Source of the DNA: a bacterium
Lineage (GTDB): Bacteria; Hinthialibacterota; Hinthialibacteria; Hinthialibacterales; Hinthialibacteraceae
Reading direction: 5' to 3'
Assembly (NCBI GenBank): GCA_963663405.2
Contig: CAXXSM010000025.1
Coordinates: 1-64,000 of the forward strand
Length of the DNA stretch: 64,000 nt
The notes below the pieces were generated by a model. It made no database searches. It had not been told where the DNA came from and saw nothing but the letters and a program-made list of their open reading frames with translations. Positions 13,500-39,197 of the stretch are shown here, piece after piece; within the stretch, counting starts at the first letter, position 1; every line of letters begins with the position of its first letter. Both the position numbers and the translations under genes were made by a program.

Positions 13500-14266
13500 A
13501 TGGCTCTCTTGAAGGACAGCGTATCGTCATTACACGCGATTCCAGCGCGATCGAATCCACTGCGGAAACGATTCGCCGCCGGGGGGGAATTCCCATCGCC
13601 TGTCCAATGATTCTCATTCATCCGCCTAAGGATACGCAGGCGTTAGACGAAGCGATCCGAAGATTATCCCAATTCGATTGGATCTTTTTCACCAGCGCCA
13701 ACAGTGTGAGATATTTGTGGAAACGGCTGATCGAGCTGGATTGCGCGCCTATAATTCCAGAACTAGTTCAATGCGCTGTCATTGGTCCAGCGACGCGGTG
13801 TGAATTGGAGGCGCATGGCATACAACCCGCGTTTGCGGCGGAACGATTTACCGGCGCGTCTTTCTTTGAAGAGTTCGCGAGACGTTTCGCTATAAACGAT
13901 CGGAAAATCTTTCTTCCGCTATCAAATATCGCTCATCGCACTCTTCCCGATCTTTTAAATAAACACGGAGCCAATGTTACCGAGGCGGTCACCTATTGCA
14001 ATGATCCGGCGCGGCAAATCCCGGATGATGTATTGCGGCAAATAAAGGAAAAGGAAATCGATTGGGTACTCTTTACCAGTTCATCAACCGCCTGCAATTT
14101 CTGTAATCTATTTGCAAAAACACCCCAGTTGAAAACTCACTTCCGGGCTGCGTCGATCGGCCCTTCAACCAGCGCAACATTGCGGGAACATGGAATTGAA
14201 CCTGCGGTTGAAGCGGAAACGCATACGATTGATGGACTGCTGGACGCGATCGCCGCTCATTCATGA
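13496..14266 (+). CDS. hemD: Uroporphyrinogen-III synthase
   Basis: IVITR, DWIFFTSANSV, AVIGPAT, FTSSST, SIGPSTSATL. Confidence 0.9.
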   Translation: MNGSLEGQRIVITRDSSAIESTAETIRRRGGIPIACPMILIHPPKDTQALDEAIRRLSQFDWIFFTSANSVRYLWKRLIELDCAPIIPELVQCAVIGPATRCELEAHGIQPAFAAERFTGASFFEEFARRFAINDRKIFLPLSNIAHRTLPDLLNKHGANVTEAVTYCNDPARQIPDDVLRQIKEKEIDWVLFTSSSTACNFCNLFAKTPQLKTHFRAASIGPSTSATLREHGIEPAVEAETHTIDGLLDAIAAHS

Positions 14267-16216
14267 ATTTTCCAATCGGACACACTCACAGGCGGGGGGC
14301 CTAAGAGTTGTTCCGCGTATCGCAGAACGATAGGCGTGCGTTGGGGGATGAAATCTTTCGCCAATTGCGCCGCTCGATCCCAATCTTCGAGAGACTTGTC
14401 ATTCGCCCAGCGTTCCGCTTCGGCTGGTATTGCTGGGCGAACTTGGTCGAGCTGTTCCTGCAGCCGCATGAGAACATGATCATCGCTTAACGTATGTTGC
14501 AGATTCCATTGGAGCCGCCGCCAAAAATAATCCTTGTACGTTTGTGTTTCGATCAATTTACGAAACAGGAGTCCAATAGTGTCATTGACAGCGTTGTCAA
14601 ATGTATTTTGATCGACACGATACCCCTGAATGCCCGAACCGAAACTGTATTCCACATCCCAGAGAAAATACTTCCATTTTCCCAATTCGTGCCGTTCGCA
14701 GGCGACGTACCAATTATGATGGGGCCAATCATAATTCTGCAGCCAGACGTTGAGGATGATGTAGTCTGTATAATTTTCCAGATCGACAAGCGTTTGCAGT
14801 TCCTCGTAATCCGCTGGATTATGCAAATTCATTCGTTGCAGCTGGACCGTTAGTTCCGTCCATGCCTGGATACTGCCGTTTTTCACTTCTCCATCTGAGA
14901 TCACATCCCAGGAATCGAATCCGAAATGCTCCTGGAGAAATTCTTCTTCCACACGGTCTGTTGGATTGTACAAGCCCCAGTATTCTCCATTCAGATAGAG
15001 TTCAGTGAAGAGACCGTAACAGGCCAAGTTACCCATATCCAAATGGAGATTGCGGGCGGTTTGATCGCTGACATAAATCGCTGTGTCCCGCTGCATTTCC
15101 CGGTCGTAGGTCCATGTGTCGTTGAATCCGCCACGTATAACGATCTGGTTGTACTGTTTGGCCGGGCTGGTTGGAAAGAGCGGGTACTCTAATTTTTTCG
15201 CGCCGTACTCAGAGCGAAAATAGAGCCGGAACGATTTCCGGGGGGAACGGCTGCGGGACGCGCCGCCGTGCATGCGCAGGCCGGTGTTTTCCACAAATCC
15301 CCGCTCGCCGTCCATCCTAAAAAACTCAACACTAACGGGCCGCTCCCATTCGATCCCGCGCTGTTCGGGATTCGCGTAAATCCCCGTCCGGCGATCCCAC
15401 AGATTGTCCGGATCGGTTACGAGGGAAAGAATGGGAAGGGCCATCCCTTCCCGAATAATGTATGTATTCGTAACGATATCGCTGGGGAAATAACCATCCT
15501 GGAACACCCGCGCCCCGCACAGGCGCGCTGTCTTCTATGGGAATGGGAGTTTGATAGCGTTCACTGTTTTGATCTGGTGGAGAACCATCAAGCGTGTAAT
15601 AGATTTCCGCGCTGGGCGCAGATGTATTCAACGCGAGTGTAAAACTATCTCGATAGATTCCCGCTGGGGTGGAGAAAACAGGAGGCGGCGTAAATCCAGC
15701 TGTTCCTTCTGTTGTGTTTGCGCGTCCTGGCGTGGACTCGAGAAAGTAGACCCATGAAGCGGAGCCATCCGGTTTGCGGCCGTAAGAAATATCCCGTATC
15801 TGTTCTAAAAATATAAGTTGATCCACAAGCGAGCCATCCGGCGCATGGAGGACGATCGTTTCTCCTTCCCGGCGCAGCCGGAAATTCGCGTGATAGTTAT
15901 CCGGATCGAGCAGATCATAGCCTGTCGCCCAAATGAGGAGAAATCCCTCCGCTGGAAGAACGATCCCTGGCAGACGCCATTTACTTGGAGCCAGCGGATC
16001 ATCCGTTAAAGTATATCCGTCAAGGAGTGTTGGTTCAGCGCCTGTGTTATATAGTTCAATCCACTCCAATGAAACGCCGGATTCGTCCTCTTGCGACGAT
16101 GCGGCGAGAATCTCATTGATAACGATAGCCGCCCGTCCGGATGATGAAATCAAAAACGATAGGCTTAATAAAAAGAAACTCCATAACCTCCAACGCCAAA
16201 CGCTTTCCCTGCGCAC
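14257..16216 (-). CDS. Secreted CotH-kinase protein with lamin-tail and Fn3-associated domains (frameshift ~15515)
   Basis: IVINEILA..WIELYN (LTD), IYYTLDGSPP, RMHGGASR..KSFRLYF, NGEYWGLY, DWPHHN, WDVEYSFG. Confidence 0.85.
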
Positions 16217-16398
16217 ACAAACCTCCTGACGATCGTGATAGAAAGACGAAACGGTAACTCTAACTTATATCACCGATTGGAATAATGATAAAGGCGCTAT
16301 GTTTAGCCAAGAGTAGGATTATTGCACCATGATCCGTGCTTTAATTGATAGTCAAAATGTGGGGGCGCGCACTTAGTGACGCCTTGATTGAAGAATTG

Positions 16399-16427
16399 TA
16401 AAAGGGCAGACGCAATGTCTGCCCCTT
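16399..16427 (-). terminator. Intrinsic terminator after leuA
   Basis: Minus strand GGGCAGAC-ATTGC-GTCTGCCC followed by TTTT. Confidence 0.6.
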
Positions 16428-16482
16428 CATCAATAATATGATTAATGAACGCTTACTGTAAGACGATTTTATTTACGCTCGA

Positions 16483-18024
16483 TCAAACTCCACGCGCTTT
16501 TTCGGACGCTTCTTTGGATATAAAACCATTCACCGCATTGATAAAAGCGATGACACTGGCTTTGAGCACGTCCGTATGAGCGCCCCGGCCGACCGCGCGG
16601 CGTCCATCTTTTTCGAGAATCACATTCGCGGAACCTTGCGCGTCCGTCCCGACTGTCACCGCGTTGACGTGATAATCTACCAGCGTCGCCTCTTCCATGC
16701 CGGTCAGTTTTTTGATGATCGAGAAAGCCGCGTCCAAAGCGCCGTCCCCGGTTCCACTCTCTTCAAGTGTATCGCCATTGGAATGAATACGGACTTTCGC
16801 GGTGGGGCGGTTGTCTTCATCGTACGAAATTTTCAGTTCCCCGAATTTGTACTTTCCATAATCCTCCGCGCGGGCCTGTTCGTCAACGATAACGATAATG
16901 TCTTCATCGAAGACCGTCTTTTTAAGATCCGCCAAGTCTTTAAACGCGGCGAACGCTTTTTCCAATTCCTCGCCTTCCATCTGAAAACCCAGTTCCTGGA
17001 GGCGGGTGACAAACGCATGCCGGCCGGAATGTTTACCCAAAACCATCGAATCTCCGGCCCAGCCGACAGATTTCGGAGACATGATTTCATACGTCGTCCG
17101 CTCTTTCAAAACACCGTCTTGATGGATACCCGCTTCGTGCGCGAACGCGTTCGCGCCGACAATGGCTTTGTTCGGCTGTACGCTGATACCGGTAAACCGC
17201 GTCAACATGCGGCTGGTGGGGTAGATCTGCTCCGTACGAATATCCGTATGATAGGGGAAGAAATCCTTGCGCACGGCGACATTCATAACGAATTCTTCCA
17301 GTGACGCGTTCCCCGCGCGTTCGCCAATCCCATTGATGGTGCACTCGACTTGACGAGCGCCGTTCCGGACCGCCGCGAGGGAGTTGGGAACCGCCAAACC
17401 GAGATCGTTATGACAGTGGACACTAACGATGGTGTCTTGAATGTTCGGCACTTTCTCGAAGATGCAAGCGATCAGGTCTCCATATTCCCACGGATTGGAA
17501 TACCCTACCGTATCGGGGATATTGACGGTTGACGCGCCTGCGTCAATGGCGGCTTCGACCACTTCGCAGATATATTCTTTTTCGGTCCGGGCGGCGTCTT
17601 CGGTGGAGAATTCCACGTTCGCTGTGTATTGACGCGCGCGTTTTACCGCTTTGACCGCTATATCCCGCACTTCTTTCCGGGTTTTCTTCAGTTTCTTTTC
17701 GACGTGGACCGGACTGGTGGCGATGAAAGTATGGATGCGGGCCCGGTCACCGGCATGTTTCACCGCTTCCCAACAACGGTCGATATCCCGTTCCATCGCG
17801 CGGGCCAGGCCACAGATTTGGGGGCCTTTGATTTCTTTGGCGACCGCTTCGACGGCTTCAAAATCCCCGATGGATGAAATTGGAAAACCGGCTTCGATGA
17901 CATTGACTCCCAAGCGTTCCAGTTGATGGGCGAACTCGAGTTTTTCTTTCAAGTTCATACTGAAACCAGGGGATTGTTCGCCGTCTCGCAAGGTGGTATC
18001 GAAAATGATGATTTTATCGCTCAT
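16483..18024 (-). CDS. leuA: 2-isopropylmalate synthase
   Basis: IFDTTLRDGEQSPG, HCHNDLG, GIGERAGN, HEAGIHQDG, C-terminal regulatory domain; likely start MSDK at 18024. Confidence 0.97.
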   Translation of the reverse strand: MSDKIIIFDTTLRDGEQSPGFSMNLKEKLEFAHQLERLGVNVIEAGFPISSIGDFEAVEAVAKEIKGPQICGLARAMERDIDRCWEAVKHAGDRARIHTFIATSPVHVEKKLKKTRKEVRDIAVKAVKRARQYTANVEFSTEDAARTEKEYICEVVEAAIDAGASTVNIPDTVGYSNPWEYGDLIACIFEKVPNIQDTIVSVHCHNDLGLAVPNSLAAVRNGARQVECTINGIGERAGNASLEEFVMNVAVRKDFFPYHTDIRTEQIYPTSRMLTRFTGISVQPNKAIVGANAFAHEAGIHQDGVLKERTTYEIMSPKSVGWAGDSMVLGKHSGRHAFVTRLQELGFQMEGEELEKAFAAFKDLADLKKTVFDEDIIVIVDEQARAEDYGKYKFGELKISYDEDNRPTAKVRIHSNGDTLEESGTGDGALDAAFSIIKKLTGMEEATLVDYHVNAVTVGTDAQGSANVILEKDGRRAVGRGAHTDVLKASVIAFINAVNGFISKEASEKARGV

Positions 18025-18276
18025 AATGATCCTCTTTTCGTTTTGTTGACGCGGCGGTGATTTGCGCCGTCCGCGTGTTGTTCTCTCTCCAACGCATGTT
18101 CGATTGTAACTCCGTAAGGTCGCTAAGGTCGCTTTCTTCATTCATTTCTAACACAAATCACCACCTCCTTTACGAAAAGAAAATTATTTGAAATGAGTTA
18201 CAGAGACTTTCTCCTTTGTATATCATTTCGCAACTCATTTTCATTAACTCGGCGCAATCTAAAAACAGGGGGATCA

Positions 18277-18548
18277 ATAAAAAAACCCCGTCCCTATTCA
18301 GGGACGAGGTTTGTTGTTTGCCTCGTGGTACCACCCTGTTTCAGCGGTTAAGAAACCGCCCTTCATTGACGCGGGATCACGGCCGCGACCCGTCCTTAAC
18401 TAGTAACCAAGATAACATATTAACACTATCCGGCGTTCGCGAAGGCGACTCCGAGGCGAGTTCAGCGTCTTGGGGAACCGGTTCACACCACCCACCGGCT
18501 CTCTCAATCCCCGCTGTCCGCTTACTACTCCTCTTCACAGTCTTTTTT
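18277..18548 (-). ncRNA. T-box riboswitch (Leu, CUC specifier) with terminator, upstream of leuA
   Basis: Minus strand: Stem I with AGTA, GAGAGAG and GGTGTGAA motifs, specifier GAA-CTC-G; T-box AACAGGGTGGTACCACG; antiterminator partner CGTCCCTG; terminator CCTCGTCCCT-GAAT-AGGGACGGGG-TTTTTTT. Confidence 0.92.
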
Positions 18549-18569
18549 AACATATCTATGAAGCAAAAG

Positions 18570-18597
18570 AGTATAGTTGATTCAGCGCAAGAGTCAA
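18570..18597 (-). promoter_or_regulatory. sigma70-like promoter for T-box/leuA transcript
   Basis: TTGACT-16 nt-TATACT just upstream of Stem I. Confidence 0.55.
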
Positions 18598-18691
18598 TAC
18601 TCTTTTTGATTATTTTTCTGTAAGGAGAATGTTAAGAGGTTAAATGTGATGAAAAACGCTGTATTCTGAAGCAACCCAAGAAGAAAAGTTA

Positions 18692-18764
<73 letters not shown>

Positions 18765-18999
18765 ACTGAGACACATATTTTGATTTCGTGAGCGAATTCT
18801 GTCAAGTCTCCGGATACACTTCGAAGAAATTCAGCGATTATTTTCTTGATTCCATTTTATTAATTTTAACAGAATCATCTTTAGAAAAGGCTTCCCCGTT
18901 ATGAATTCCAAACGATAATAAATGATTACGAGATTATCAATTAAATAATACGAATCTCGTTTTAACGACCGCTTGTTGTGAATGGAGTGGAATTAATCA

Positions 19000-19485
19000 A
19001 TGACCACAGCCGAATGGCTTCTCTATACAATCCTTGGCGGACTGGGCGTATTGTACGCTGTCTATTCTCATCAGTTCAAATTCTGCTTGGCGGATTATCT
19101 CCCGGAATTTTTGGGAAAACGGAAAGTACTGTTTATTATTGGTTTCGCGATCGTGCTGGTTGGATTGGCCCTAGAAAGAATCATTGGCGCGTATCATGGA
19201 ATCATTACGCTGATCGGAGGATGGGTAATGTTACTCGGCGCCGCGCGCTGGTTTAACCAGCGGATTGTGCGAACGTGTTTCTCTCCGGATGAACTGCGGA
19301 TTATCCGGACTACAATCCACGCTGGGGCCGCGCTGATTCTACTCAGTACGGGTTTCTTCTATCTTCCTTCCACATTCTCTCCCGCGACGTTTCTCATGGG
19401 CGCCGCCATTACGGTTTTAGCCGGGCGGTTATGGTGGAATCTCGACATAGAGCGGGATATGATCAGCAAATTTGACCGCTTGTAG
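19000..19485 (+). CDS. Hypothetical multi-pass membrane protein
   Basis: 161 aa, about five hydrophobic segments. Confidence 0.7.
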   Translation: MTTAEWLLYTILGGLGVLYAVYSHQFKFCLADYLPEFLGKRKVLFIIGFAIVLVGLALERIIGAYHGIITLIGGWVMLLGAARWFNQRIVRTCFSPDELRIIRTTIHAGAALILLSTGFFYLPSTFSPATFLMGAAITVLAGRLWWNLDIERDMISKFDRL

Positions 19486-20179
19486 AAGTTCTCACGTTCT
19501 GCTCATACTCCCGGATGCGAGCGATCAACGCCAAGACTTTATCCGGATCCTTTTTTCCTTTGCATAACTCCACGCCGGAGGCGACATCTAATCCATACGG
19601 TTGAACGGTGATGAAGGCCTGGACCGCATTATCTGGATTCAATCCACCGGCGAGAAGAATGGGCAATAGCGCTTGGTTTCGCACTTCACACGCGAGATCC
19701 CAATCAACCGTTTTCCCCGTTCCCCCCAACATCCGCTTCCCTTGAACAATCGCGCTGGCGTCGAAGATGATTCGATCGGCGCCGGCGTTTTTGTATTCCA
19801 TGATATGTTGGATCAAAGATTCGGCGCTAACCATACCGGCGCTCTCTCCCACCGGTATGTGAAGCGCTTTCCAGACTTCGCATGTGATTTGTTGTTTGAT
19901 CTCTTCCACAGCGCGTGGCGATTCATGGCCATGCAGCTGCAATGCGGCTGCGGGAAGCGCTTCGGCGATACGAAGGTTATCAGCGACAGATTTATCAAGA
20001 GTAACGGCGGCGATGGGTAAGGGCGGATTCACGCAAATATCGAGCGCGTGATCCAATGTGTTTGAACGCGGCGATTGTTCGATCTCAACCAAGACGCCGC
20101 CATAGTCAGCGCCCGTTTTTGCGATGAATTCCATATCTTCGCGATTGGTTAAACCACAGATTTTTATTTTACAAGCCAT
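19463..20179 (-). CDS. trpF: Phosphoribosylanthranilate isomerase
   Basis: KIKICGLT, QLHGHE, GGTGKTVDW, LAGGLNPDN, DVASGVE. Confidence 0.95.
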   Translation of the reverse strand: MACKIKICGLTNREDMEFIAKTGADYGGVLVEIEQSPRSNTLDHALDICVNPPLPIAAVTLDKSVADNLRIAEALPAAALQLHGHESPRAVEEIKQQITCEVWKALHIPVGESAGMVSAESLIQHIMEYKNAGADRIIFDASAIVQGKRMLGGTGKTVDWDLACEVRNQALLPILLAGGLNPDNAVQAFITVQPYGLDVASGVELCKGKKDPDKVLALIARIREYEQNVRTSTSGQIC

Positions 20180-21429: not shown

Positions 21430-21469
21430 CAAAGTGTAAGAACTTCCAGATGGCTTTATCGGACAAGTT

Positions 21470-23074: not shown

Positions 23075-24502
23075 CAGTAAAAATTGAATACAATCCATAC
23101 CATGATTTGTTTATTCAAAAAACTTGACGCTGTGTATCTTTATGTGAGAGAATTGGGGAAAGTCACTAAATCAATCCAATTTTTTTGGAGGATGATAAAC
23201 AATGAGAAATATAGGATCAATATTCGGATTCGTGGTCGTTCTATTACTCACATTCAGTCTCGCCGGGTATGCGCAGGATTTTCCCCCTCGCACACAGTAC
23301 GTCCATTATTTAGGGGATATCGAAGGAGTGGAGCCACCAATAATCGATGGCATCCTTGATGACGCCGCATGGCTTCACACAGCCCAAGGAAGTGGACCGG
23401 GGCAGAATTTCAATCACCAAAATATGATTATCAAAATATTCCCGGAAATCGCTTCCGATGATCCCACACAACCAGGTGTTCTGGATGGGGAAGTTCCAAT
23501 CGATGATACGGATTTATTATACATGGTCTGGATGACCTATGACGACACCTATCTGTATGTCGCCGTAACAACCCAAGATTGGGATTTATTAACCGCTGTT
23601 GAAGCCGGATCGGAAGATGGAGAAACGTGGAACGATGATTCGGTTGAACTCTTCTTTGATGGCAATCACAACGCGGTTGAAGGGGATGTAAACGATCACC
23701 CCGAAGAATACGAGACCGGTGGCCAATTCGTATTGACGGCCAACGGCGCCCGCCGTGACGCTGAAGCGGGTGATCCAACATTCGGAGAGGGAGACGACGC
23801 AGATTGGTACGCTACCGTTTGGGATACGGATAACTTCGATGGTATGAATTATGAATTCCGGATAAAGTTATCGAAAATCGGCAATCCGCAAAAAGGCGAT
23901 ACGATCGGTTTTAATATCGCCGTCAACGATTCAGACACGACCTCTGGCGTGCGGGATTCTCAATTGCTTTGGGTTGGCGCGCCGCATCAAGAAAGCACCT
24001 ATGGCGATTTGATTTTCGGCCGCCGCGAAATCACCATTCCATTGGTTACGGATCCCGTCGTTATCGATGGTGCGCTGGATGAGACAGCTTGGTCAAAAGC
24101 CATTCGTGATTATATGAATATCCACACATGCACATTCAATACCGGCATGTTATTTACCAGCCTTGAGGATATGTCGACTGAAATCCTCTTGTTCCACGAT
24201 ACGGATTATTTGTATATCGCATATGATGTAACAGATGATATTGTCAGGGCGGACACAGGAGAACCGAATTCCGCCGGCGCGAGCATTTGGAACGATGACG
24301 CGGCGGAAATAATGATTGATGGTGATATCAGCAGAACCGAAGGAGCTAATATTGGATGGGGCGCAAGTATGAAGATAATGATTACACCCAACAACTCCAT
24401 CAATACAGCCGATGTATTCTTCTATGGTGAATCAGAAGAAGATGACTGGTTCGGGAAAGCCACGGAAACAGACAAGGGATATATTCTAGAAGTGAAAATA
24501 TT

Positions 24503-25693
24503 GGTGATGTCCCCAAATTATTGACATATTGATGGGAACCATAACAATTCAGCGAGTGACCATGGATGATCGGTCAATTCAGCAGCCATCGCTGGCGTTT
24601 TAGGAGTAAATGATCGATCGCTCTGCCGACTCAAAGTCTCATGGGGCCGGATGAAATTGTAACAAGCGACCACCAATGAAAATTTGGCTTTTAACCAGCG
24701 TATGGATTTGGCGAATGTCGTCGATTGCCGTCTCAAATGGGCGTCCCATAATCGCCAATTCAAGTTCGATCGTTCAACGAAAGATGTATTTACTGTGTTA
24801 CTTGGTGTACTTTCCAACCGATTGGCAATCCGGCTCTCCGAGCCAAAAACCACTTTGGTTTCAACGTTCACTATACACCCATTTTTTCGGGTCTTATGAA
24901 CGGTTGCGTAATCCAAATCTTCATGGACAATTTTCTCCGGATTTTTGGGGCGGCCTCGCTGCCCCGTCGGTTCCGGCTGAATCAGCGTGTGAAACATCTC
25001 TTCGAGTCCATTCTCGTAATGGGGGAGTTCATCCGACACAAATAAGGGTTTCTCGTTCATTCGTGAAATCAAGTCTTTTAAAAAACTGTGTGCGTCTTCC
25101 AGCGTCCGATCTCCAATGAGAAACGTGATGATTAATCGGGTTGTGCTATCAATGGCCGTCCAGATCCATGTCCGCCCATACTCCTTTTCCAATTCTTCTT
25201 CGCTAACACTTTTCTTTTTTTTACAAAGGTCCAGAGTTCGTCCAGTTGGACCTCGGTCATCTGGAGGGAATGGAGTAAATTGGATAAAACCAAAGCACAG
25301 TGTTCACCGGCGCGAAGGATGACTCGGTTCACTGTGTCTTTATCAAGATTCAGTAATCGAGCGGTTCCGCGAACGCTGACTCCTTCCGCCGCATGGTGAA
25401 TAATCTGTTGAATCGTTTCACCGGGGAGATGAAGTCCAAAAAAAGCCGTACACTTGGTTTCCGCGAAGCGATGGCCGCAAGTCCGACAATAGAGAAGAGT
25501 CCTTGTTTTGTCTTTCCCATACATTCCACGCGTCCCGATGTTATTTTGATTTCTCAATCCGTAATCTTTACAATCCTTGTTTGGGCAAAACACATTCGTC
25601 AAGGCTGTCATAACTCACCTCCAAGAAAGTTTTCTTCTTGAAGGTAATATTATACTCACTATAATTTATTGTCAACTATGAAGGGACATTACC
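24503..25693 (-). mobile_element. IS1-family insertion sequence (1191 bp), 8-bp TSD AAAATATT
   Basis: Terminal IRs GGTGATGTCCC..TTGACA and GGTAATGTCCC..TTGACA; TSD at 24495-24502 and 25694-25701. Confidence 0.95.
24518..25611 (-). CDS. IS1-family transposase, InsA/InsB joined by -1 frameshift
   Basis: Zn ribbon CPNKDC..CRTC, HTH, DELWTFVKK, WIWTAID, SDE, VERSN; slippery A8G at 25214-25222. Confidence 0.9.
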
Positions 25694-25974
25694 AAAATAT
25701 TAAAGGAAGCGTTTATGCCTGATCCAACCGCTAAGGAAATCGGTTTCTCTCTCGCTATCGACGATGATGACAACGATGACGGAGGGGAAGGTGTGGCGGA
25801 CCGGGATGCTCAAATGCGTTGGAACGGAACGCCAAACCGTGAGAACACCTACGGCGTCTTAATCTTTGGAGAAGAACCGACCGCCGTTTCCAGTTGGGAA
25901 CTATTCTAAAATGAAACAGTATAAAACTGTAATCTAAGTTTTGAAACTATGAATAATCTTAATAGTATCCCTCT

Positions 25975-26586
25975 TTAATACGATACAGCGACATCATTTC
26001 CCGTGAAATTCTGTCCTAAAATGCCTTTATCAGCGACAACAATATCCCCTACACTGATTAAACCATTACTCGGTTCATACGCCATCCAATATGCGAGCCG
26101 CTGAGGATTTACAATGTACCACCGGTCCGGCGCTGGGCTCCGCGTCACGAAACTGGCGTTCGCATCAATACCAGTGGTCCCGCTAGCGCGCATCTGATCG
26201 ATGTTCCGGTAGTGATACGTGCCCACTTTAACGGATTCCCACGCCGCGCCGCTGTATTCATTCGTTTCGGGAACGAAGGGATCGTAAAACGCTCCGCCAT
26301 TGATATACGAAACCGGCGTCGTCAAGTATTTCCAGACTTGCAGGGCGTCGCTCTGTCCACCTACGACCCCGATCTGCGTCGGATCGGGAATCACGGAATT
26401 ATTGTCAACGCGATACATCCCAATCGCGGAGCCGATCGAACGAAGATCGGCCAGCGCCCGCGCCACTTTGGCCCGTACCTGCGCGTTCAGAAAATTCGGC
26501 ACGGCGATCGCCGCCAGAATACCTATTATCGCCACAACTATAAGCAACTCGATCAATGTAAATCCTTTATTATTTTTGTGGTTCAT
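25975..26586 (-). CDS. Prepilin-type N-terminal cleavage/methylation (GspG-like) protein
   Basis: KG|FTLIELLIVVAIIGILAAIAVPNFLNAQVRAK. Confidence 0.9.
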   Translation of the reverse strand: MNHKNNKGFTLIELLIVVAIIGILAAIAVPNFLNAQVRAKVARALADLRSIGSAIGMYRVDNNSVIPDPTQIGVVGGQSDALQVWKYLTTPVSYINGGAFYDPFVPETNEYSGAAWESVKVGTYHYRNIDQMRASGTTGIDANASFVTRSPAPDRWYIVNPQRLAYWMAYEPSNGLISVGDIVVADKGILGQNFTGNDVAVSY

Positions 26587-26923
26587 AAGTAGTACTCCTT
26601 CAACATGGTTTCTCTTTTACTGGCGGTTATGGCGCGTAAGTTCTTATTGCAGTTTAAAAACCTATATTCCTTACTTCATTCTATGCTTCATGATAACCAG
26701 TAAATGAATCAATTGAAGGAATTATGATCCTGCTTTTTAAAAATTGAGAATATTCCAAATCAACTCATTCCACATAATGGTTAATAATCTATAACGCCCA
26801 TCTGGGCGTCTATAATAAAAAATTCTCATTGCGTAGACAAACAAACCGCCTCGGACGACAACATCAATAGAACCGTACGGTGAGCGCTCAAACAATACCG
26901 GTAAATGTAAGAATGAGGTGATT

Positions 26924-27457
26924 ATGGCAAACACGATCGATGAACGAGATTACGATCTCTTGATTGAACCGGTCAAACAACAAATGATCCGTTCGATATG
27001 GAGAATCGTACGCGACGCCGGAGACGCGGAGGAAGTTCTACAGGAATCATTCGAGGTGATTTGGAAACAGATCAAGAAAATCAAGCGGCATCCAAATCCC
27101 CATCCTTTAATTCTTCGAATCTGTATCTGTGTCAGTTACGACTTTCTTAGAAAAAAGATACGAAATCAGAAACGAATCGAACGGATGGATTTCAAAGAAA
27201 TTCCTGTTGAATCACCTCACACCGCGAGTGGCGATCTGCTCTCAAAAGAAATCAAACAAGAGATCGATTCAGCAATCATCCAATTGCCCAGAAGGCAGGC
27301 TGAAGCCGTCCTGATGCGTTTCATTCAGGATCAACCCTACAACGCCATCGCGCAGTCGATGGGATGCAGCGAAACAACGGTTCGCACGCATATCGAGCGT
27401 GGACGAGTTAAACTCAAACAACTTCTCGCTCACCTGGAACCGGAAACAACCAGTTAG
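26924..27457 (+). CDS. ECF sigma-70 factor
   Basis: DAEEVLQESF..W, LPRRQAEAVLMR, TVRTHIERGR. Confidence 0.9.
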   Translation: MANTIDERDYDLLIEPVKQQMIRSIWRIVRDAGDAEEVLQESFEVIWKQIKKIKRHPNPHPLILRICICVSYDFLRKKIRNQKRIERMDFKEIPVESPHTASGDLLSKEIKQEIDSAIIQLPRRQAEAVLMRFIQDQPYNAIAQSMGCSETTVRTHIERGRVKLKQLLAHLEPETTS

Positions 27458-27467
27458 GAGAAAAAAA

Positions 27468-29084
27468 ATGAATAAAGAAATTAATAAAAATGGACTCAAC
27501 CATATCTTCAATTCATCGGATATTCTGCCCAAAGAAGTCGAATCCCGCTTGGAAAGCCAATTCGTGGATTTTCGCAAACGGTTCGCCAAAGCGGAAGAAT
27601 CTCCATCTTATTCATTCGGGCTGTTCCAGTTTAGAAACGCTTGGATCTGGTCGAGCGCGTCAGCGCTGGGAGTCACGTTTATAATCCTCGCGCTCACAGT
27701 CTTCAATTCTAATCACAACGATGTCTTCGCCAAAACCATTGAAGCGCTTAAATCCGTTCAAACCGTCCATGTCGAAGGATGGACATACTTTAAATGCATG
27801 ATTGAAAGTGATGGAATTCCAATATCGAAACCGGAAGAAACGAAATGGCATTTTGAACGCTGGGAATGGATCGAACCAGACGGTCAGATCAAATCGTATC
27901 GCGAAGGCGGTCCCTATATTGTCTTTGAAACAAGCGAACGAAAATACATGTACAACAAAGAAACAGAAAAACTGAACGTCAGCGAATATACAAATGCAAG
28001 AATGATCGACGAAGCTCCTTCCATGGCGTTCCGCCTTTTTAATGACTTAACACCGGAAAAAATGCGGATCGATTTGGGATCACATGAGATCGAAGGGATC
28101 CAATGCTATGGCAGGCGGATGGAGATGACTCACCTTGGAATTACGCTATACCAAGATTATTGGTTCGGAGTGGAAAGCGCGTTGCCTCATGTGATCTCTT
28201 GCACATTTAAAAGAGATGATCATGTTCAAGAGGTATCACGTATGTATATCAAGTATGACGAACCGGTTCCGGAAAGCATCCTAACCTATCAGCCGCCTCA
28301 ATCCGAAGTGACAGAGAATTCGCCGAAACTCGATCCAAAACAAGACTCTTGGGAAAATCATCTCCAAAATTTGGCCCAATATTACCAGACAAATCCTTTA
28401 CCCGAATTCATGGAACTCATTCCTCGATCCTTTTCTCGTGGTTTTAGTTCCTATGGCTATCCTGCGACAATGCCAGGGATTATTGGATACCAAGTCATAC
28501 CGATCAAATACGAATTCCACATATTTCTGGAAGATTGGAAACCCGGCCAAGTCCGTTTGGCCGACAGCGCCCGGTCGTTTCTACCCAACCATGATTTGAT
28601 TTACAAAGTACTGCCGGAAGATCAGGGTCAAATCATGCCGGAGTATCAAATTCTCTTCGTTTTAGACAAACTGGGATTGAAAGTTCGGGAAATCGAAGAA
28701 TCGCGCCAAGTATGGACCGCCAAACACGACGGTCGTGAAATGAAATTCTGGCAGGATATTCAACCCCCTATTTCAGATACAGGTGAAAAAATTGAAATAT
28801 CCGGCACAGGGCCAACTTACCTCAAACAGCTCTTCGAGAGTCTAATTAAAGTAAGGGATAATACGGGGAATAGTAACTTGACCGCGGATCACCTCTTTAT
28901 CATCGACGAAACCGGTTTGGCCGAAGCGTCAGATAAGCAGGATCCACTTCCGGTTAGTAACATCAGTCCTGATTGGCATGGTGTAAAAGATGAAACCATC
29001 CAACAATGGTTCTACGATGAATTTGGAATCACTTTCATCAATGAAGAACGAACCGTAACCATTTACGAAATTTACATGGATTGA
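27468..29084 (+). CDS. Putative single-pass anti-sigma factor with large periplasmic domain
   Basis: Directly follows the ECF sigma; short N-terminus, one TM helix, then large soluble region. Confidence 0.6.
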   Translation: MNKEINKNGLNHIFNSSDILPKEVESRLESQFVDFRKRFAKAEESPSYSFGLFQFRNAWIWSSASALGVTFIILALTVFNSNHNDVFAKTIEALKSVQTVHVEGWTYFKCMIESDGIPISKPEETKWHFERWEWIEPDGQIKSYREGGPYIVFETSERKYMYNKETEKLNVSEYTNARMIDEAPSMAFRLFNDLTPEKMRIDLGSHEIEGIQCYGRRMEMTHLGITLYQDYWFGVESALPHVISCTFKRDDHVQEVSRMYIKYDEPVPESILTYQPPQSEVTENSPKLDPKQDSWENHLQNLAQYYQTNPLPEFMELIPRSFSRGFSSYGYPATMPGIIGYQVIPIKYEFHIFLEDWKPGQVRLADSARSFLPNHDLIYKVLPEDQGQIMPEYQILFVLDKLGLKVREIEESRQVWTAKHDGREMKFWQDIQPPISDTGEKIEISGTGPTYLKQLFESLIKVRDNTGNSNLTADHLFIIDETGLAEASDKQDPLPVSNISPDWHGVKDETIQQWFYDEFGITFINEERTVTIYEIYMD

Positions 29085-31533: not shown

Positions 31534-31571
31534 ATTGATCGTATCTAGGATCGATGGAAAGGAGTGGAGTC

Positions 31572-32742: not shown

Positions 32743-34794
32743 GTGGAATGGGTTAACTTGGAGGAAAACACGATTGCTTTGGAAGGATTGGATACCGACC
32801 GCGAAACCGTCAATCTGCGAGAAACGTGGATCAATTCCGGCAACTCCGATGTGGGGGAAATTAACGTGGAAGCCTTAACCCTGCGCGCCAAACCGACCAC
32901 CGCCGATCGCGAATACGGTATCCTGGGCCGCAAGATCATGAATCTTCCCGCCAAACGGTACATTCAATTTCAAGGCGGTCTGCAGGCGCTCGCCGGACGA
33001 GATAAAGGGGCGAACCTGTCGCTGGACGTAGAAACCCGCGACACGGATGGACAATGGGTGGAAGCCCGTTCGTTTCCCGCCAAGCGCATATTGGTCGACG
33101 GCGAGGATCAGGGATCGCGTTACCTCGTGCTCAACCTAAGCGAATGGGCGGGGCAGGAAGTGCGCCTTTCGCTCGCTCTGCGCGTCAAGCCCTCCTATTC
33201 CAATATCGCCGGACGCGAGGAATGGACTCCCTCCGAAATCTCCGCCCAATGGTTCATGGCGCGGATTGTCAGCAGTCCGTTTCGCGTGATCGTGGGTGAA
33301 CCGGAAAAAATATCGCTGTCGGATTCCACACCCGCGCGCGGGAATTCTCTGCAATCAATCTCTCCCGCTAATCCACTGCCGGATTCCTTAATTAAAGCGT
33401 CCACCATCGTCTCGACAACGAGTAGTAAAGAGGCCGTGTTATTCGGCGGCGCCACGCAAGAGGGCTATGTAATGAATCCCTCCGATACCGAAATTGCTAC
33501 TACCATTCTCCCCGAAGAGGGTGATTATCCTAGCCGTGCCATCTGCTATTTTACTAGTAGCGTAGCCGCTACATACCAACCTCATGGCGCTTCACATGGC
33601 GTACATTCACCAGAAAGTGATTTTGGCGCCAGTTCACGATTGATCGACTTTGCCAGCAACACATCAAAAAACATGTACAACGCCACCGTTTCCGAGATTC
33701 GCAATGCCATGATTAAATATGCCACCGGTGCGTCGTGGGCGGTTTTACAACCCAGTGGGATTGCCTCGCGCGATTTTGACGATCATTATGTGGGCATCAC
33801 ATCGATTGTTACTGACACACTTGGCGCGCCCACTTATAAACCCGTTATTCATGCCTTCTTTTATGCGGAAGATCACTTTAAGAATGATCAGGGGACTAGT
33901 AACGATCATAATTATGTAATTATCAATGAAAAGGAAAAATCATCAACCTACGGTCGTATCGCTTACGCTCGTTCCATAGTCGACACTCATGATTATGGCC
34001 GTCAATTTTCAAAAATATACCATGATAATAGCGTGTATCCCATCATCACCGATGCCGCCGCCGCGGATGAAAGTGTTATCTCGGTTTCCATGTCTCAAGG
34101 ATCCAATGGTGTTGGTGGCGCATCAGTATACCCCATTGGCGACTATTACTACATGATCTATCACACACAAGTCATTACACGAAATGCTGCAGGTGAATTT
34201 CTTGTCCATCCTGTGACTGGTTTATATCAAAAAGTACCAATTTTATGCGCGGCACGCGCGCTAAAAAGTGCTGTCAATAATCCCTATTACGCGACTCAGC
34301 CCAATCCATGGTTAAAGTTTAAGGAAGTTGCGTCACCTCCAACCGACGACGATAATTTCGACGAACTAGGCGTTGGCGGCGAATATAGCGGATTGTGGAA
34401 CGTTGAGGTAGATGAAAATAATCATCGTACCGCTAAACGAATCAATGCAAACAACTGGCGTACCTATCCCAAAGTTAGTTACAACGAATATATAAACAGT
34501 GTCTACCCCGACCATCAAGGGATACTTATATGTAATGGTGGATTTTCTAAGGACTTTGCTGGTATTTGGATTCACACCAGTTCAAACCTTCTCGACTGGG
34601 ATGGTGGGCTTTTAGTTTGCTTTAAAGATGATGAATTAGAACAAGGCGGAGATGAAGATTGGGTCTACCCCACTCTTGTGGGTAGTACTGGTTACGATGG
34701 GTATACAACACAAACGAATAAGTTGTATATGTTTCATAATCGTGGGGGAGGTAACGGCGATCTCTATCGCTTCACGTTGACGTTTTCGGACTAA
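32743..34794 (+). CDS. Large hypothetical, probably secreted, with C-terminal beta-propeller-like domain
   Basis: 683 aa ORF; signal-peptide-like segment upstream in another frame (~32630-32695); IAYARS, YYYMIY, TSSNLLDW, YPTLV patterns. Confidence 0.6.
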   Translation: MEWVNLEENTIALEGLDTDRETVNLRETWINSGNSDVGEINVEALTLRAKPTTADREYGILGRKIMNLPAKRYIQFQGGLQALAGRDKGANLSLDVETRDTDGQWVEARSFPAKRILVDGEDQGSRYLVLNLSEWAGQEVRLSLALRVKPSYSNIAGREEWTPSEISAQWFMARIVSSPFRVIVGEPEKISLSDSTPARGNSLQSISPANPLPDSLIKASTIVSTTSSKEAVLFGGATQEGYVMNPSDTEIATTILPEEGDYPSRAICYFTSSVAATYQPHGASHGVHSPESDFGASSRLIDFASNTSKNMYNATVSEIRNAMIKYATGASWAVLQPSGIASRDFDDHYVGITSIVTDTLGAPTYKPVIHAFFYAEDHFKNDQGTSNDHNYVIINEKEKSSTYGRIAYARSIVDTHDYGRQFSKIYHDNSVYPIITDAAAADESVISVSMSQGSNGVGGASVYPIGDYYYMIYHTQVITRNAAGEFLVHPVTGLYQKVPILCAARALKSAVNNPYYATQPNPWLKFKEVASPPTDDDNFDELGVGGEYSGLWNVEVDENNHRTAKRINANNWRTYPKVSYNEYINSVYPDHQGILICNGGFSKDFAGIWIHTSSNLLDWDGGLLVCFKDDELEQGGDEDWVYPTLVGSTGYDGYTTQTNKLYMFHNRGGGNGDLYRFTLTFSD

Positions 34795-34809
34795 ACGACG
34801 GCAAATCCA

Positions 34810-34837
34810 CCCAGGGCACGAATATGCGCCCTGGGTT
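34810..34837. repeat. Intergenic hairpin
   Basis: ACCCAGGGC-N10-GCCCTGGGT. Confidence 0.5.
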
Positions 34838-34858
34838 GTTGTCAGTAAGGAAAAAATT

Positions 34859-35878
34859 ATGTTTAAATCCATAAGCATTGCCTCAATCTTCTTTGCATTT
34901 CTTTCTATTGATATCCATGCGCAAATTGTTAAACAACCGGTTATGGTTCAATCCCTTCCCTCCTTTGAATTTCCCAAAATGCCTGGATATGCTGACGACC
35001 AACTTGAATATGCAATATATTTCCTCGTACCAAATCCAGATCACAATTTACAGATAATTTATTATAACGTAGCAAGTGAACCATGTTATCCATTCCCTGG
35101 ATACTATAGGATTCTTCATACAAATTTAACGACGTGGGACATTATTCATGCGAAGATTTTGGATACGGAATTAATCAATGGAAATCTGTTTCCTGTTAGT
35201 AATCTCATACACGACGCTAGTTCTGTTACGATCAACGGAAAGCAAATAATATTAGAAGACAGTTATTTACCATTTATCGTTGTCAATGAAGGAGGGTATG
35301 GATTCTCTCTCCAATCCGTCGAATTATCTCCTTCACAAAAATATGTCGGAGGGATAATTATGTATTGTGATGATTATTTGTATGGTACAATATTGTCATT
35401 ATGGGATGCAAATACAGGTGATACAATCTATAGAGAATATCCAACGGAACCGTTTCTTTACCGGAGTGATTTCAATTGGATTTATAATCGCAAAATTGAA
35501 CCTAAACTGATTGATTTACATTTTACACTAGATGAAAATTATCTAATAACACGAGAGTTTTGGGGGGATAATTACCGGAATATCAGCATACCAAGAGCAA
35601 AAATGCTTGATTTAAAGAAATGGGAGTTTATAACTGTTGACCGGGACGTCGCCTTCAGTTCCGACATGCGTTACATGGTAACTGAACGCAATGGACTGCC
35701 TTCGCTGGTGGATCTCGAATCCAATACCATCATTCACCAATATCAAGTCGAATACCCCATGACCGCCTGCTGCTTCTCCCCTGATGATAGCCAAGTCTAT
35801 ATCACCACTATCATAAACGAACTCCACATCTTCGATAGCGGCCTGCAATCAACAGCGCCGTGCTGGGAGGTGTATTGA
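34859..35878 (+). CDS. Secreted WD40-like protein, paralogue 1
   Basis: Signal peptide; SLWDANTG, AFSSDMRY, CFSPDDSQ; ends STAPCWEVY. Confidence 0.75.
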   Translation: MFKSISIASIFFAFLSIDIHAQIVKQPVMVQSLPSFEFPKMPGYADDQLEYAIYFLVPNPDHNLQIIYYNVASEPCYPFPGYYRILHTNLTTWDIIHAKILDTELINGNLFPVSNLIHDASSVTINGKQIILEDSYLPFIVVNEGGYGFSLQSVELSPSQKYVGGIIMYCDDYLYGTILSLWDANTGDTIYREYPTEPFLYRSDFNWIYNRKIEPKLIDLHFTLDENYLITREFWGDNYRNISIPRAKMLDLKKWEFITVDRDVAFSSDMRYMVTERNGLPSLVDLESNTIIHQYQVEYPMTACCFSPDDSQVYITTIINELHIFDSGLQSTAPCWEVY

Positions 35879-35941
35879 ATGAATGCACTATTCATACAGA
35901 TCACAGAATAGCGCCCTTGGTGGATTGTAAAGGACTGCATT

Positions 35942-36955
35942 ATGTTAAAAAACATAGACTATACCATCTACTTATTGCTAATGCTCTCAATTGATACTCA
36001 TGCGCAAACCATTAAGCAACCAACATTGGTTCAAACTCTTCCCATACCGGAATACCTAGAATTTGATCCTAATAACCAATGCTTTGGTATTTACTTTCTT
36101 AAAGTTCAGAATGAGAATAGTATAGAATTAACAAGTATTATTTCTGAAATCCGAAGATATCTTCCAATGCCATCTAATCATATCAGTTTTGTAGCTTATA
36201 TTGAGGAAACTTGGGATATGAATCAACAAGAGTATTCAAAAATTGCCTATCGTGGCGGACGTATACCTATAAGCAGCATCGTTCATGACGCAAGTTCTGT
36301 TACACTCAACGGAAAGCAAATAATATTAGAAGACAGTTATTTAGCATATATTGTTGTCAATGAAGGAGGGTATGGATTCTCTATCCTATCCGCCGAATTA
36401 TCTCCTTCACAAAAATATGCCGGAGGGATAATTCTGTATTATGATGATTATACGCATGGTACAATAATGTCATTATGGGATGCAAAAACTGGTAATGTAA
36501 TCTATCGCGAGTATCCAGCCGATCCGTTTCTTTATGAGAGCGATTTTGATTGGATTTATAATAGTAAATTCGAGCCTGAAGTAATCGATTTACACTTCAC
36601 TCCAGATGAAAATTATTTGATAACACGAGAATTTTGGGATTTTCACCGTGGCGGTAGTACGCCAGTAGCAAGAGCAAGAATGCTTGATTTAAGGAAATGG
36701 GAATTTATAACTGTTGACCGCGACGTAGCCTTCATTTCCGACATGCGTTATATGGTGACCGAGCGCGATGGATTGCCTTCGCTGGTGGAACTCGAATCTG
36801 ATACTATCATTCATCAATACCAAATCGATTGCGCTATGACCGCCTGCTGCTTCTCCCCTGACGACACACAAGTCTATATCACCACTATCATAAACAAACT
36901 CCACATCTTCGATAGCGGCCTGCAATCAACAGCGCCGTGCTGGGAGGTGTATTGA
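35942..36955 (+). CDS. Secreted WD40-like protein, paralogue 2
   Basis: Same architecture; 3' end nearly identical in DNA to paralogue 1. Confidence 0.75.
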   Translation: MLKNIDYTIYLLLMLSIDTHAQTIKQPTLVQTLPIPEYLEFDPNNQCFGIYFLKVQNENSIELTSIISEIRRYLPMPSNHISFVAYIEETWDMNQQEYSKIAYRGGRIPISSIVHDASSVTLNGKQIILEDSYLAYIVVNEGGYGFSILSAELSPSQKYAGGIILYYDDYTHGTIMSLWDAKTGNVIYREYPADPFLYESDFDWIYNSKFEPEVIDLHFTPDENYLITREFWDFHRGGSTPVARARMLDLRKWEFITVDRDVAFISDMRYMVTERDGLPSLVELESDTIIHQYQIDCAMTACCFSPDDTQVYITTIINKLHIFDSGLQSTAPCWEVY

Positions 36956-36999
36956 ACGAACGTACATTCCATTCATAGAGCGAATATTAGGAGTTTCTC

Positions 37000-38055
37000 A
37001 TGCAAAAACTTTTTTTGATTCCAATTATATTTACGATCATTTTTTCGATCGATATTTCTGCACAAAATATAATACAGCCAATTGAGGTTCAAAGCCTTCC
37101 TACTCCGGAATTTCCTTTTCACCAACCAGATGATAAAACAGCAGTTTACTTCTTAAATAACAATGATGAACACAATGTAGTGCAAATCTCATTCTATGTC
37201 ACGATGTCTACGACAGACGGAACTATGCCATATACAATCGATTTTGTCTATAGGAATTTAACTCGTTGGAATTTTGCTGAACAAAAAGTGCTATCTTCCG
37301 AAACGGATAGACTATTTTTATTGATGGGTGAATCAAAAGAAGATACAAATATTGAAGAAATTTTAAGAGTCAGTAATGTGGAGCATAACGCAGATTCTAT
37401 ATTCATTGATGATGAGAAAATACTATTAGAGAATTCGTATGCGTATGCGCAATCACAAGGTGGCGAATATGATGAATATGGCTTTTATCTTAAAGATACG
37501 TTCTTATCTCCATCAAAAATAATTCTGGGAGGACTGATTGGCTACTACGATACCCAAATAGATGGAACAATTCTTGGTTTGTGGAATCCTCACGATGGTA
37601 AGGCAATATATCGAGAAATTCCTGTGGAGCCATTTCCATTCCTGGGTTCCTCGGAGATTTATAACATGAGAGTTTGTCCGCGAACCATTGAATTGGATTT
37701 TTCTATCGATGAGCGTTTCTTTTTCATACGTGAATTTCACGGTTGGTATGATGAAATACCTATCCCGAGTGTTAAATTATTGGATTGTGATACGTCTCAA
37801 CTCTGGGACGCCGACAAGGACGTCGCTTTCAGTTCCGACATGCGCTACCTGGTGACCGAACGCGATGGACTGCCTTCGCTGGTGGATATCGAATCCAATA
37901 CTATCATTCACCAATATCAAGTCGAATACCCCATGACCGCCTGCTGCTTCTCCCCTGACGAAAGTCAGGTCTATATCACTACTATCATAAACGAACTCCA
38001 CATCTTCGACACAGGAATTGAATCAAACGCAACAAATTGGGAGCGGATTAAATAA
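37000..38055 (+). CDS. Secreted WD40-like protein, paralogue 3
   Basis: Same architecture; DVAFSSDMRY..ELHIFD block nearly identical to paralogue 1. Confidence 0.75.
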   Translation: MQKLFLIPIIFTIIFSIDISAQNIIQPIEVQSLPTPEFPFHQPDDKTAVYFLNNNDEHNVVQISFYVTMSTTDGTMPYTIDFVYRNLTRWNFAEQKVLSSETDRLFLLMGESKEDTNIEEILRVSNVEHNADSIFIDDEKILLENSYAYAQSQGGEYDEYGFYLKDTFLSPSKIILGGLIGYYDTQIDGTILGLWNPHDGKAIYREIPVEPFPFLGSSEIYNMRVCPRTIELDFSIDERFFFIREFHGWYDEIPIPSVKLLDCDTSQLWDADKDVAFSSDMRYLVTERDGLPSLVDIESNTIIHQYQVEYPMTACCFSPDESQVYITTIINELHIFDTGIESNATNWERIK

Positions 38056-38075
38056 GGCGTCACATACAGACAAGC

Positions 38076-38110
38076 AGGGTGGGCTACGCTTCGCTTTTAG
38101 CCCACCCTAC
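38076..38110 (-). repeat. GTAG-type REP palindrome between convergent genes
   Basis: Minus strand GTAGGGTGGGCTA-AAAGCGAAGCG-TAGCCCACCCT. Confidence 0.7.
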
Positions 38111-38165
38111 TACATTTCTACTAAAAAGCTCAATCAATGATCGCTCAAAGAATAGAGCGGAATAA

Positions 38166-39197
38166 TCAATAAAGATCCCAACCTTCAACCGCTGTTGGTT
38201 CCGGAACAAGCGCGTGATCGAACAACTGGGTCGCGAGACCATCCGCGTCCCCAAAGTTTTCCAATCCAACGATGGGCAATTCCTGAGGAACCGGCAATTC
38301 ATCCAACTGAGTTGAATCATAAATAAAGATGATGCTTTTACTGCCGCTCGGTCCATTGTGATTGGTCGCGATAAACCGTTCGGAACCGTCTTCAATCAAC
38401 GTAAAGTTCCATACGCCTCCCAAACCATCCAAGGAGAAATCAAACGTGCCGAGAACCGTTCCTTCCATGCTGATTCGGTCCACCGTCCCGGTTCCTGGAA
38501 TCGCGAGCAATTCATTGGAATCTTCTAAATAAGCGAGAGAACGATAGGCTTTTTCCGTGGGGATGGAATCGACCGCCGCGCCGCCTTCCTCCGTATAAAT
38601 GTTAATTCGATTATCCACTTCGCTAGGGATTAAAATACGCCCGTCAGGAAGCGTTAGGGCTTTTCCACTACCCCCATTGCCGTTACTCTGCAGTGTTTCC
38701 GTCACGTCAAATAATGTGGTTTCCACGATATCACTACCGGAAAAACGAAACCGGAAACTATGAGAGGGAGGCGGAGGCTCGTTGCTCATGACGAATACTT
38801 CATTCGGAGCGTAACTGCTGACCCAGGTGCCTTTAGTGATCTCCACCGGCAATACAAAGAAATCCTGTGCGCCATCGGTTAGAATCCGCAATATCTCTCC
38901 CCGGCCTTGAGGTTGCGCTACCTGCTCAGTGGCTGACAACGGCACGCTCGTAATCCCCACGTAACAGGTCCCATTCGGATCGAACGCGACGCCTAAAGGC
39001 CGGCGGCGGCTTGTGTCACCTAAATCCCACCGTACGACTTGGACAACCGCCGCTTCAGTCTCACCCAGAGACACTTCTATCAGCATGTCATCACTGGCGT
39101 CAACGAGGACTAGATTTCCGGGTGTGAACGGATCCGCAGAGACGAATTGAACACTTAAAACGATGAAAAAGATTGTAAGACATGATACGAATCGCAT
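38166..39197 (-). CDS. Secreted beta-propeller-like hypothetical protein
   Basis: Signal peptide; RPLGVAFDPNG, LPDGRILI; ends VPEPTAVEGWDLY. Confidence 0.7.
   Translation of the reverse strand: MRFVSCLTIFFIVLSVQFVSADPFTPGNLVLVDASDDMLIEVSLGETEAAVVQVVRWDLGDTSRRRPLGVAFDPNGTCYVGITSVPLSATEQVAQPQGRGEILRILTDGAQDFFVLPVEITKGTWVSSYAPNEVFVMSNEPPPPSHSFRFRFSGSDIVETTLFDVTETLQSNGNGGSGKALTLPDGRILIPSEVDNRINIYTEEGGAAVDSIPTEKAYRSLAYLEDSNELLAIPGTGTVDRISMEGTVLGTFDFSLDGLGGVWNFTLIEDGSERFIATNHNGPSGSKSIIFIYDSTQLDELPVPQELPIVGLENFGDADGLATQLFDHALVPEPTAVEGWDLY

Follow-up and report, generated by a model that had tools for sequence, protein, structure and literature searches.

A short C-terminal tail containing a tryptophan (Trp) recurs on secreted proteins encoded in a 64,000-nt stretch of a Hinthialibacterota genome (G000:C25:1-64000, hereafter the window), and the analysis presented here, which covers the source genome and a sample of 35 genomes of the phylum Hinthialibacterota (OLB16), establishes this tail as a real tag, free of a transmembrane (TM) helix, on unrelated exported proteins throughout the phylum. 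Its role is very probably that of a C-terminal sorting signal for exported proteins. In the source genome (8.44 Mb, 170 contigs, 82% complete), 6,774 genes were called by a self-trained coding model, with gene starts often uncertain. The tail has the nine-residue consensus [TVS]-[PSA]-[VI]-x-[DN]-W-x-[LIV]-[YFH] and is followed by 0-3 residues before the stop.

An iterated profile of the tail, scored in bits and trained on the Trp tails themselves, which makes it partly circular, accepted 195 of the 6,774 called genes (~3% of genes), with the Trp at position -4 from the end in 150 tails, -5 in 39, -6 in 4 and -7 in 2. A simple end pattern was found at 164 true ends, compared to a mean of 1.5 (maximum 7) over 50 pseudo-end sets, and Trp was the fourth residue from the end in 283 and the fifth in 146 of the 6,774 genes (~111 expected). 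Internal Trp sites passed the profile in 48 of 33,658 cases, and at the stricter score of 6 the number of sites dropped from 196 within 8 residues of the stop to none at 9-20 residues. Genome-wide, a chance origin of the tail is excluded. The idea that it is a chance pattern or merely the structural end of one or a few families is refuted by the counts and retains next to no probability: the two largest BLAST groups do hold 41 and 26 of the 195 tail proteins, but there are 87 groups in total, 58 of them with a single protein, and in the beta-propeller protein of the window, whose model is confident to the last strand (mean predicted local distance difference test score (pLDDT) 88.5), the last block with the tail has a pLDDT of 44 and lies beyond the predicted fold. 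As the original sequence-only reading of the window had pointed out, a Trp at -4 alone is unspecific; the cytoplasmic amidohydrolase ending in LLKWRET, its case in point, has a profile score below -20.

Signal peptides were assessed by a hydrophobicity heuristic, not by SignalP. By this measure, a signal-like start is present in 139 of the 183 tail proteins of at least 150 residues (76%) and in 1,520 of the 4,680 others (32%; p 6e-32), so that the enrichment on secreted proteins, proposed as a check in the sequence-only reading, is borne out. In 192 of the 195 tail proteins no helix is predicted past residue 45, and only 3-6 residues follow the Trp, with neither a membrane helix nor a basic cluster downstream of the motif. 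Export of the cargo by the Tat route or as lipoproteins was considered and rejected, with a Tat motif in 0 and a lipobox in 1 of the 195 proteins. About half of the 44 tail proteins scanned against Pfam had no family, and the remainder contained CBM9, CotH with a lamin-tail domain (LTD), LamG, beta-helix, LRR, WD40, esterase, sulfatase, phosphatase and cohesin-dockerin families. Among the 591 genes flanking tail genes, the enriched neighbour families were small local paralog sets only, with no receptor family. Two related secreted proteins (G000:C145:9052 and C57:22415) carry a tail-like motif (scores 15.1 and 6.0, respectively) at a different place, ~47 residues from the N-terminus.

The range of the tail was assessed with a strict DNA pattern of tail plus stop, compared in each genome with a reversed-pattern control. 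The tail exceeded the control in 34 of the 35 genomes, with 7-78 matches versus 0-9, a few of the matches being false positives that end in TGG and not in a stop. The sample includes families f1-f4 (27 genomes) and f6; one genome, G030, lies narrowly above its control (7 matches versus 3), and G001 is the exception, with 1 tail match versus 2 in the control and no Trp tail seen in 400 kb of its sequence. Secreted proteins of G001 (L050, L056, L057, L063) and of f6 (L096, L098) terminate in EF-hand, dockerin-like C-terminal tails in which a Trp is often found close to the terminus, and G001 seems to use such ends in place of the Trp tail. Relatives of the propeller gene are present in SURF_12 and Ca. 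Hinthialibacter antarcticus, which, according to passages of PMC9324843, are assigned to phylum OLB16/Ca. Hinthialibacterota and are degraders of complex polymers; no mention of a C-terminal signal was found in the text passages and word counts of that paper.

Whether an existing family already describes the tail was a question raised by the sequence-only reading, and the answer is negative for the libraries searched: Pfam and NCBIfam, matched against 56 tails at E values up to 10, gave one chance match each, and no model covers the tail. The propeller's 26 C-terminal residues gave no usable match in the ESM Atlas, and the literature searched, exclusive of subscription journals and supplements, contained no description of the tail. 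Homologs of the cargo proved more informative. Of 30 propeller homologs, 26 keep the tail and the other 4 look partial; 6 more distant ones keep it as well, and the homolog P0032 has an N-terminal hydrophobic stretch and TPR-like repeats without the tail. The 101 homologs of a tailed LTD+CotH protein comprise 73 with the tail, 3 with a C-terminal domain (CTD) of type IX secretion systems (T9SS) and 25 with neither; by eye, the last group includes 5 tail variants, ~15 proteins starting with a dockerin-like pair and 1 ending in another domain. In homolog P0286, the last helix is the same and leads, via a linker spaced like that of the tail, into the T9SS CTD. Sorting signals are usually recognised by their exchange with known display modules (PMC1569441, bioRxiv 2023.06.07.544157), and since the tail is exchanged with T9SS CTDs and dockerins on homologous cargo, we infer with high confidence that it is such a signal. 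The original proposal of an undescribed, lineage-wide sorting or anchoring signal is thus well supported by the enrichment on secreted proteins, the lack of a library model, the range across the phylum and the replacement of a CTD on CotH. PorV-like barrel genes lie directly behind genes for Pro/Thr-linker proteins ending in a ~300-residue repeat domain at L084:10085-14262 (G000:C125) and G000:C35:12966-16918, the C125 protein has cohesin and dockerin domains too, and a similar repeat domain seems to take the place of the tail in CotH homolog P0252. Such a domain may represent a third kind of C-terminal module, paired with a barrel of its own.

Within the window, all six C-termini described in the sequence-only reading are present, five of them scoring 12-21 bits, but its view of six secreted proteins from four unrelated families had to be amended in part. 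The tail of the CotH protein (14257..14289, minus strand; 10 residues plus stop; score 18.4) closes the 3' frame of a CotH-kinase gene (PF08757; 14257..15507, minus strand), a frame without its own signal peptide; the signal-like start, the LTD and a chitobiase-C domain are encoded in the overlapping 5' frame of the same gene (15332..16216, minus strand), separated by a frameshift near 15510-15570. A CotH paralog on contig C124 is split at a similar place, and both breaks may be assembly errors. The secreted double-CBM9 gene is interrupted by an insertion, so that its 5' part (23202..24524, plus strand) is separated from a 3' remainder (25694..25909, plus strand) with the Trp tail at 25880-25909 (score 21.3) by an IS1-like element of ~1.2 kb with two overlapping frames (24497..25696, minus strand). 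Elsewhere in the genome there are three complete copies of this element, 99.7-99.9% identical, together with two partial ones, the near-identity of the copies pointing to recent mobility. Secreted WD40-like proteins 1 (34859..35878, plus strand; tail 35849-35878) and 2 (35942..36955, plus strand; tail 36926-36955) are paralogs with identical tails, each scoring 12.1, whereas secreted WD40-like protein 3 (37000..38055, plus strand) ends in a degenerate tail (38023-38055, score -1.7); seven listed paralogs of the latter have tail scores of 8.5-14.4. The sixth tail (38166-38195, score 19.7) belongs to the secreted beta-propeller (38166..39197, minus strand). Given the duplicate tails of WD40-like 1 and 2 and the degenerate one of WD40-like 3, the window provides four independent strong cases and not six. 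Two other loci lie among these genes: a 683-residue protein without Pfam or NCBIfam match (32743-34794), all three family members of which in the genome are encoded at most two genes from a tail gene, and, at 26918-29084, an ECF-sigma-like gene (by eye) followed by a gene for a 538-residue membrane-anchored protein without Pfam match, which is probably the anti-sigma factor of this ECF-sigma-like protein.

As to how the tail might be read, the single most likely mechanism, which we advance tentatively from sequence comparison, is that PorU-like C25 peptidases cut the tail and attach the cargo in the absence of the other type IX components. The cargo has a Sec-type signal peptide by the heuristic and is without a membrane helix or lipobox; after Sec export, the tail would be free behind a short linker, and a recognition cap made up of the invariant Trp, the Leu/Ile/Val after it and the final Tyr/Phe/His would substitute for the 70-80 residue T9SS CTD. 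The cargo would then cross the outer membrane via a type II secretion system (T2SS) secretin, or be processed in the periplasm, and one of two conserved PorU-like peptidases would cut behind the Thr/Ser/Val at -5 from the Trp and pass the new C-terminus to a putative amine-bearing acceptor of the envelope. In 169 tails with Val/Ile at -3 from the Trp, the residue at -5 is Thr in 51%, Val in 27% and Ser in 17% (95% together), that at -4 is Pro, Ser or Ala in 22% each (66%), and that at -1 is Asp/Asn in 53%, whereas 3,638 internal control sites are flat at the positions of this tail head. The two most distant tail-bearing families have Thr/Ser at the head in 14 of 16 tails and Ala/Ser/Gly as the next residue in 11 of 16. 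According to PMC4560394, PorU sites have a small residue (Gly/Ser/Ala) and then Val/Leu/Ile after the cut, often with Thr before it, and the cargo is attached by an amide at the new C-terminus; PMC11969387 agrees on the site and reports shortened, three-strand CTDs as well. Compared by column frequencies and by eye, the tail head resembles a PorU cleavage site.

The PorU model NF033707 matches all 35 genomes, with best E values of 3e-28 to 4e-74, mostly in two paralogs of ~1,820 aa and ~1,260 aa, the alignment often running from model position 5-160 onward. Both paralogs combine a C25 domain with CARDB domains, PorU (6za2) is the only C25 match of both in the PDB, and the catalytic His and Cys are intact in 59 of 59 fetched copies (20/20 and 39/39). 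In a quick tree of 34 of the 37 rows found (three short fragments were left out), the two Hinthialibacterota peptidase clades follow the species families. One paralog is encoded at G000:C61:17838-21656 of the source genome, and an intact copy of the long one is present in G012 (C8). The lack of exosortase in f1-f4 and of sortase in the source genome, the GspD-type secretins of all 35 genomes and the replacement of the tail by a T9SS CTD on CotH homologs also count in favour of this route.

Several observations weigh against this assignment. The PorU cut-off of 420 bits was reached in 0 of the 35 genomes, the best score being 249, and sub-threshold matches to the model occurred in 2 of 14 control genomes too. 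CARDB domains and no CTD were seen in 4 of 4 scanned PorU-like peptidases, and the peptidase genes do not adjoin a porV gene; C25+CARDB proteins are widespread, and the quick tree places both clades outside that of the PorU-PorV-linked peptidases. The peptidase genes lie among housekeeping genes and not in tail-gene clusters, and G001 keeps both peptidases yet shows no tail excess. PorV-like barrels (NF033709) are weak in 29 of the 35 genomes, none over cut-off, and were not found with this model in any of the 6 tail-bearing genomes of f2/f3. As a pattern, Thr-x-Val is generic and shared with beta-strands and PDZ ligands. Neither the Pro after the supposed cut (22%) nor the Val before it (27%) occurs in the 17 P. 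gingivalis PorU sites of PMC4560394 Table 2, and a passage of PMC4804311 calls PorU cleavage sequence-independent. The complete scenario, in which Hinthialibacterota would perform PorU-type transpeptidation without a type IX translocon, on a signal shrunk to a cleavage site and a four-residue Trp cap, with export by a T2SS and involving ~3% of genes, is conceivable from the sequence data but rather doubtful.

A scan of metagenomes with the long paralog gave 34 loci, including 6 close relatives, where, with family names assigned by eye, some C25 peptidases are encoded directly upstream of porV-like genes and others end in a short LPL-type tail. In the loci L166-L178, the peptidases with the LPL-type tail are followed by a gene for a small membrane-anchored protein, an arrangement that looks like another short-tail system. 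In L174, L176 and L181-L185, a C25 peptidase with a CTD-like end lies directly upstream of a large porV-like gene, on contigs that by eye are not Bacteroidota-like.

The sequence-only reading had suggested a T2SS-like reader, given the GspG-like genes near the tail genes, and in its extended form this explanation treats the tail as an uncleaved linear export signal that would be read by a type IV filament, be it at the T2SS pseudopilus tip, by an inner-membrane platform subunit or by the pilin-like family. The machinery is available: a GspD-type secretin model matches in 35 of 35 genomes, 30 of them over cut-off, and the source genome has three T2SS-like operons, with GspG, K, M and D genes present. 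The genome also contains 137 pilin-like genes, 106 of them with an SNG..S.GD motif, and 27 of the 195 tail genes adjoin one, versus 13.3 expected from other secreted genes (p about 2e-4), with 20 of the 27 pairs co-directional; the remaining 168 tail genes, however, have no adjacent pilin, and the counts do not track each other across genomes, with 110 pilin motifs and 10 tail matches in G002, 3 and 30 in G033, and 24 and 1 in G001, although the pilin pattern may miss variants. The spatial part of the T2SS proposal thus finds support in the adjacency excess, whereas the comparison across genomes does not bear it out. The restriction of the motif to the last 8 residues before the stop would suit such a reader, as would the precedent of CofJ, whose terminal peptide docks on the minor pilin CofB (PMC6048534, in part), and the tail core [VI]-x-[DN]-W is like the last residues of GspG pseudopilins, over four positions only: the two true GspG pseudopilins (G000:C29:10306-10725 and C118:121921-122391) end in D-I-x-N-W plus 4-5 residues, a likeness that may be due to chance. 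Strand complementation of pilins by a GspG-like end was rejected, as the modelled pilin is already closed by strands of its own, the pilins carrying a hydrophobic strand of their own after the GD motif, and no match at E 0.001 came from Foldseek. A filament reader also leaves the conserved tail head unexplained, and this reading appears unlikely. The pilin-like gene of the window (25975..26586, minus strand), which is a member of the large SNG..S.GD paralog family and is convergent with the CBM9 tail, is a candidate partner only; in other genomes it has orthologs whose head domains reach 89% identity, within-genome paralogs are ~40% identical overall, and a separate conserved ligand may exist for each group of paralogs. 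The PorU-like peptidase pair is at least as good a reader candidate as a T2SS-like machine, and cutting by the peptidases is compatible with a filament-read export signal: both can hold.

Two further explanations dispense with either reader. The tail could be a non-covalent docking peptide, a minimal dockerin substitute, on a surface scaffold, an S-layer or an outer-membrane barrel, in line with the dockerin-like ends in tail-free G001, the ~15 of 101 CotH homologs that by eye start with a dockerin-like pair in the absence of the tail, the tail-free architecture of P0032 and the cohesin-dockerin proteins of the source genome. This appears distinctly unlikely: no conserved receptor family emerged among the tail-gene neighbours, the tail lacks an EF-hand, none of 56 tails matches a Pfam dockerin model, and PorV-like barrels were not found in f2/f3. 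Alternatively, the tail could be a tag for periplasmic retention, chaperones or turnover, for example a ligand of a PDZ protease, with no surface display. The need for a nearly free C-terminus and the resemblance of Thr/Ser-x-Val and Val-x-Val to PDZ ligand classes speak for such a tag; nevertheless, homologous cargo elsewhere carries T9SS CTDs or dockerins, both surface-display modules, and the cargo types (CotH, CBM9, LamG, beta-helix, LRR, cohesin, esterase, sulfatase) suit the cell surface, which renders a purely periplasmic role improbable.

In practical terms, the tail would predict the surface-bound proteins of polymer-degrading Hinthialibacterota, and two concrete candidate enzymes can be named that are assayable on synthetic peptides without culture. 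If these peptidases cut the tail, PorU-type anchoring would exist independently of the type IX translocon, a point relevant to the origin of that system, and the tail would offer a very small tag for enzymatic protein ligation.

Among known systems, the tail shares with the T9SS type A CTD of Bacteroidota (TIGR04183, PF18962) the combination of a Sec signal peptide with a TM-free C-terminal signal on unrelated cargo, including the same CotH family. In contrast to that folded domain of 70-80 residues, it comprises nine residues, although shorter three-strand CTDs exist (PMC11969387, in part); none of the 56 tails matches T9SS CTD models, TIGR04183 has no match in the source genome (its control was silent), and SprA was found neither with TIGR04189 (0 of 1 genome) nor with PF14349 (0 of 35), models that were silent in 14 of 14 controls too. 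Likeness to the PorU system (NF033707, PDB 6za2), in which cargo is cleaved and joined to a glycolipid, extends to the tail head and to the His-Cys C25 peptidases present in every phylum genome, whereas the Hinthialibacterota enzymes are below cut-off, CARDB-ended and without a porV neighbour. Tripartite signals are recognised as C-terminal, present in many copies per genome and attached to unrelated signal-peptide proteins (bioRxiv 2023.06.07.544157, in part), and the Trp tail resembles PEP-CTERM (TIGR02595, PF09721), LPXTG, GlyGly-CTERM and MYXO-CTERM in its many copies at the extreme C-terminus of unrelated signal-peptide proteins, but differs from all four in the lack of a membrane helix or basic cluster. 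The corresponding enzymes differ as well: exosortase (PF09721) occurs in 8 of 35 genomes and in 0 of the 27 of f1-f4 (control matched in 1 of 14), no sortase (PF04203) was found in the source genome at its 82% completeness (control matched in 3 of 14), and its one rhomboid match to rhombosortase (TIGR03902) lies below cut-off, at 41 of 84 bits. The propeller family has a VPEP just before the Trp tail, reminiscent of PEP-CTERM; an origin of the tail as a PEP-CTERM remnant was rejected, with no PEP-CTERM-bearing homolog among 11 further ends of 150 listed, no TIGR02595 match (silent control) and no exosortase in f1-f4. CofJ/CofB of CFA/III from enterotoxigenic Escherichia coli (ETEC) also involves a short, flexible terminal peptide, which in CofJ is read by a type IV filament protein; unlike the tail, that peptide is N-terminal and serves one substrate per system, in a type IVb pilus. 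Dockerin type I (PF00404) occurs as another terminal module both in these cargo families and in tail-free G001, but consists of a folded, calcium-binding EF-hand pair and not of a nine-residue peptide; the EF-hand pattern occurs in 22 other genes, none with the Trp tail. Overall, the tail probably works like a T9SS CTD or PEP-CTERM yet belongs to neither class, and no library or literature description was found. To our knowledge, a membrane helix is part of every short C-terminal sorting signal in the catalogues, and the T9SS CTD, which is TM-free, forms a folded domain; next to these, the Trp tail would represent a new type of signal, a nine-residue soluble tag carried by ~3% of genes across a whole phylum.

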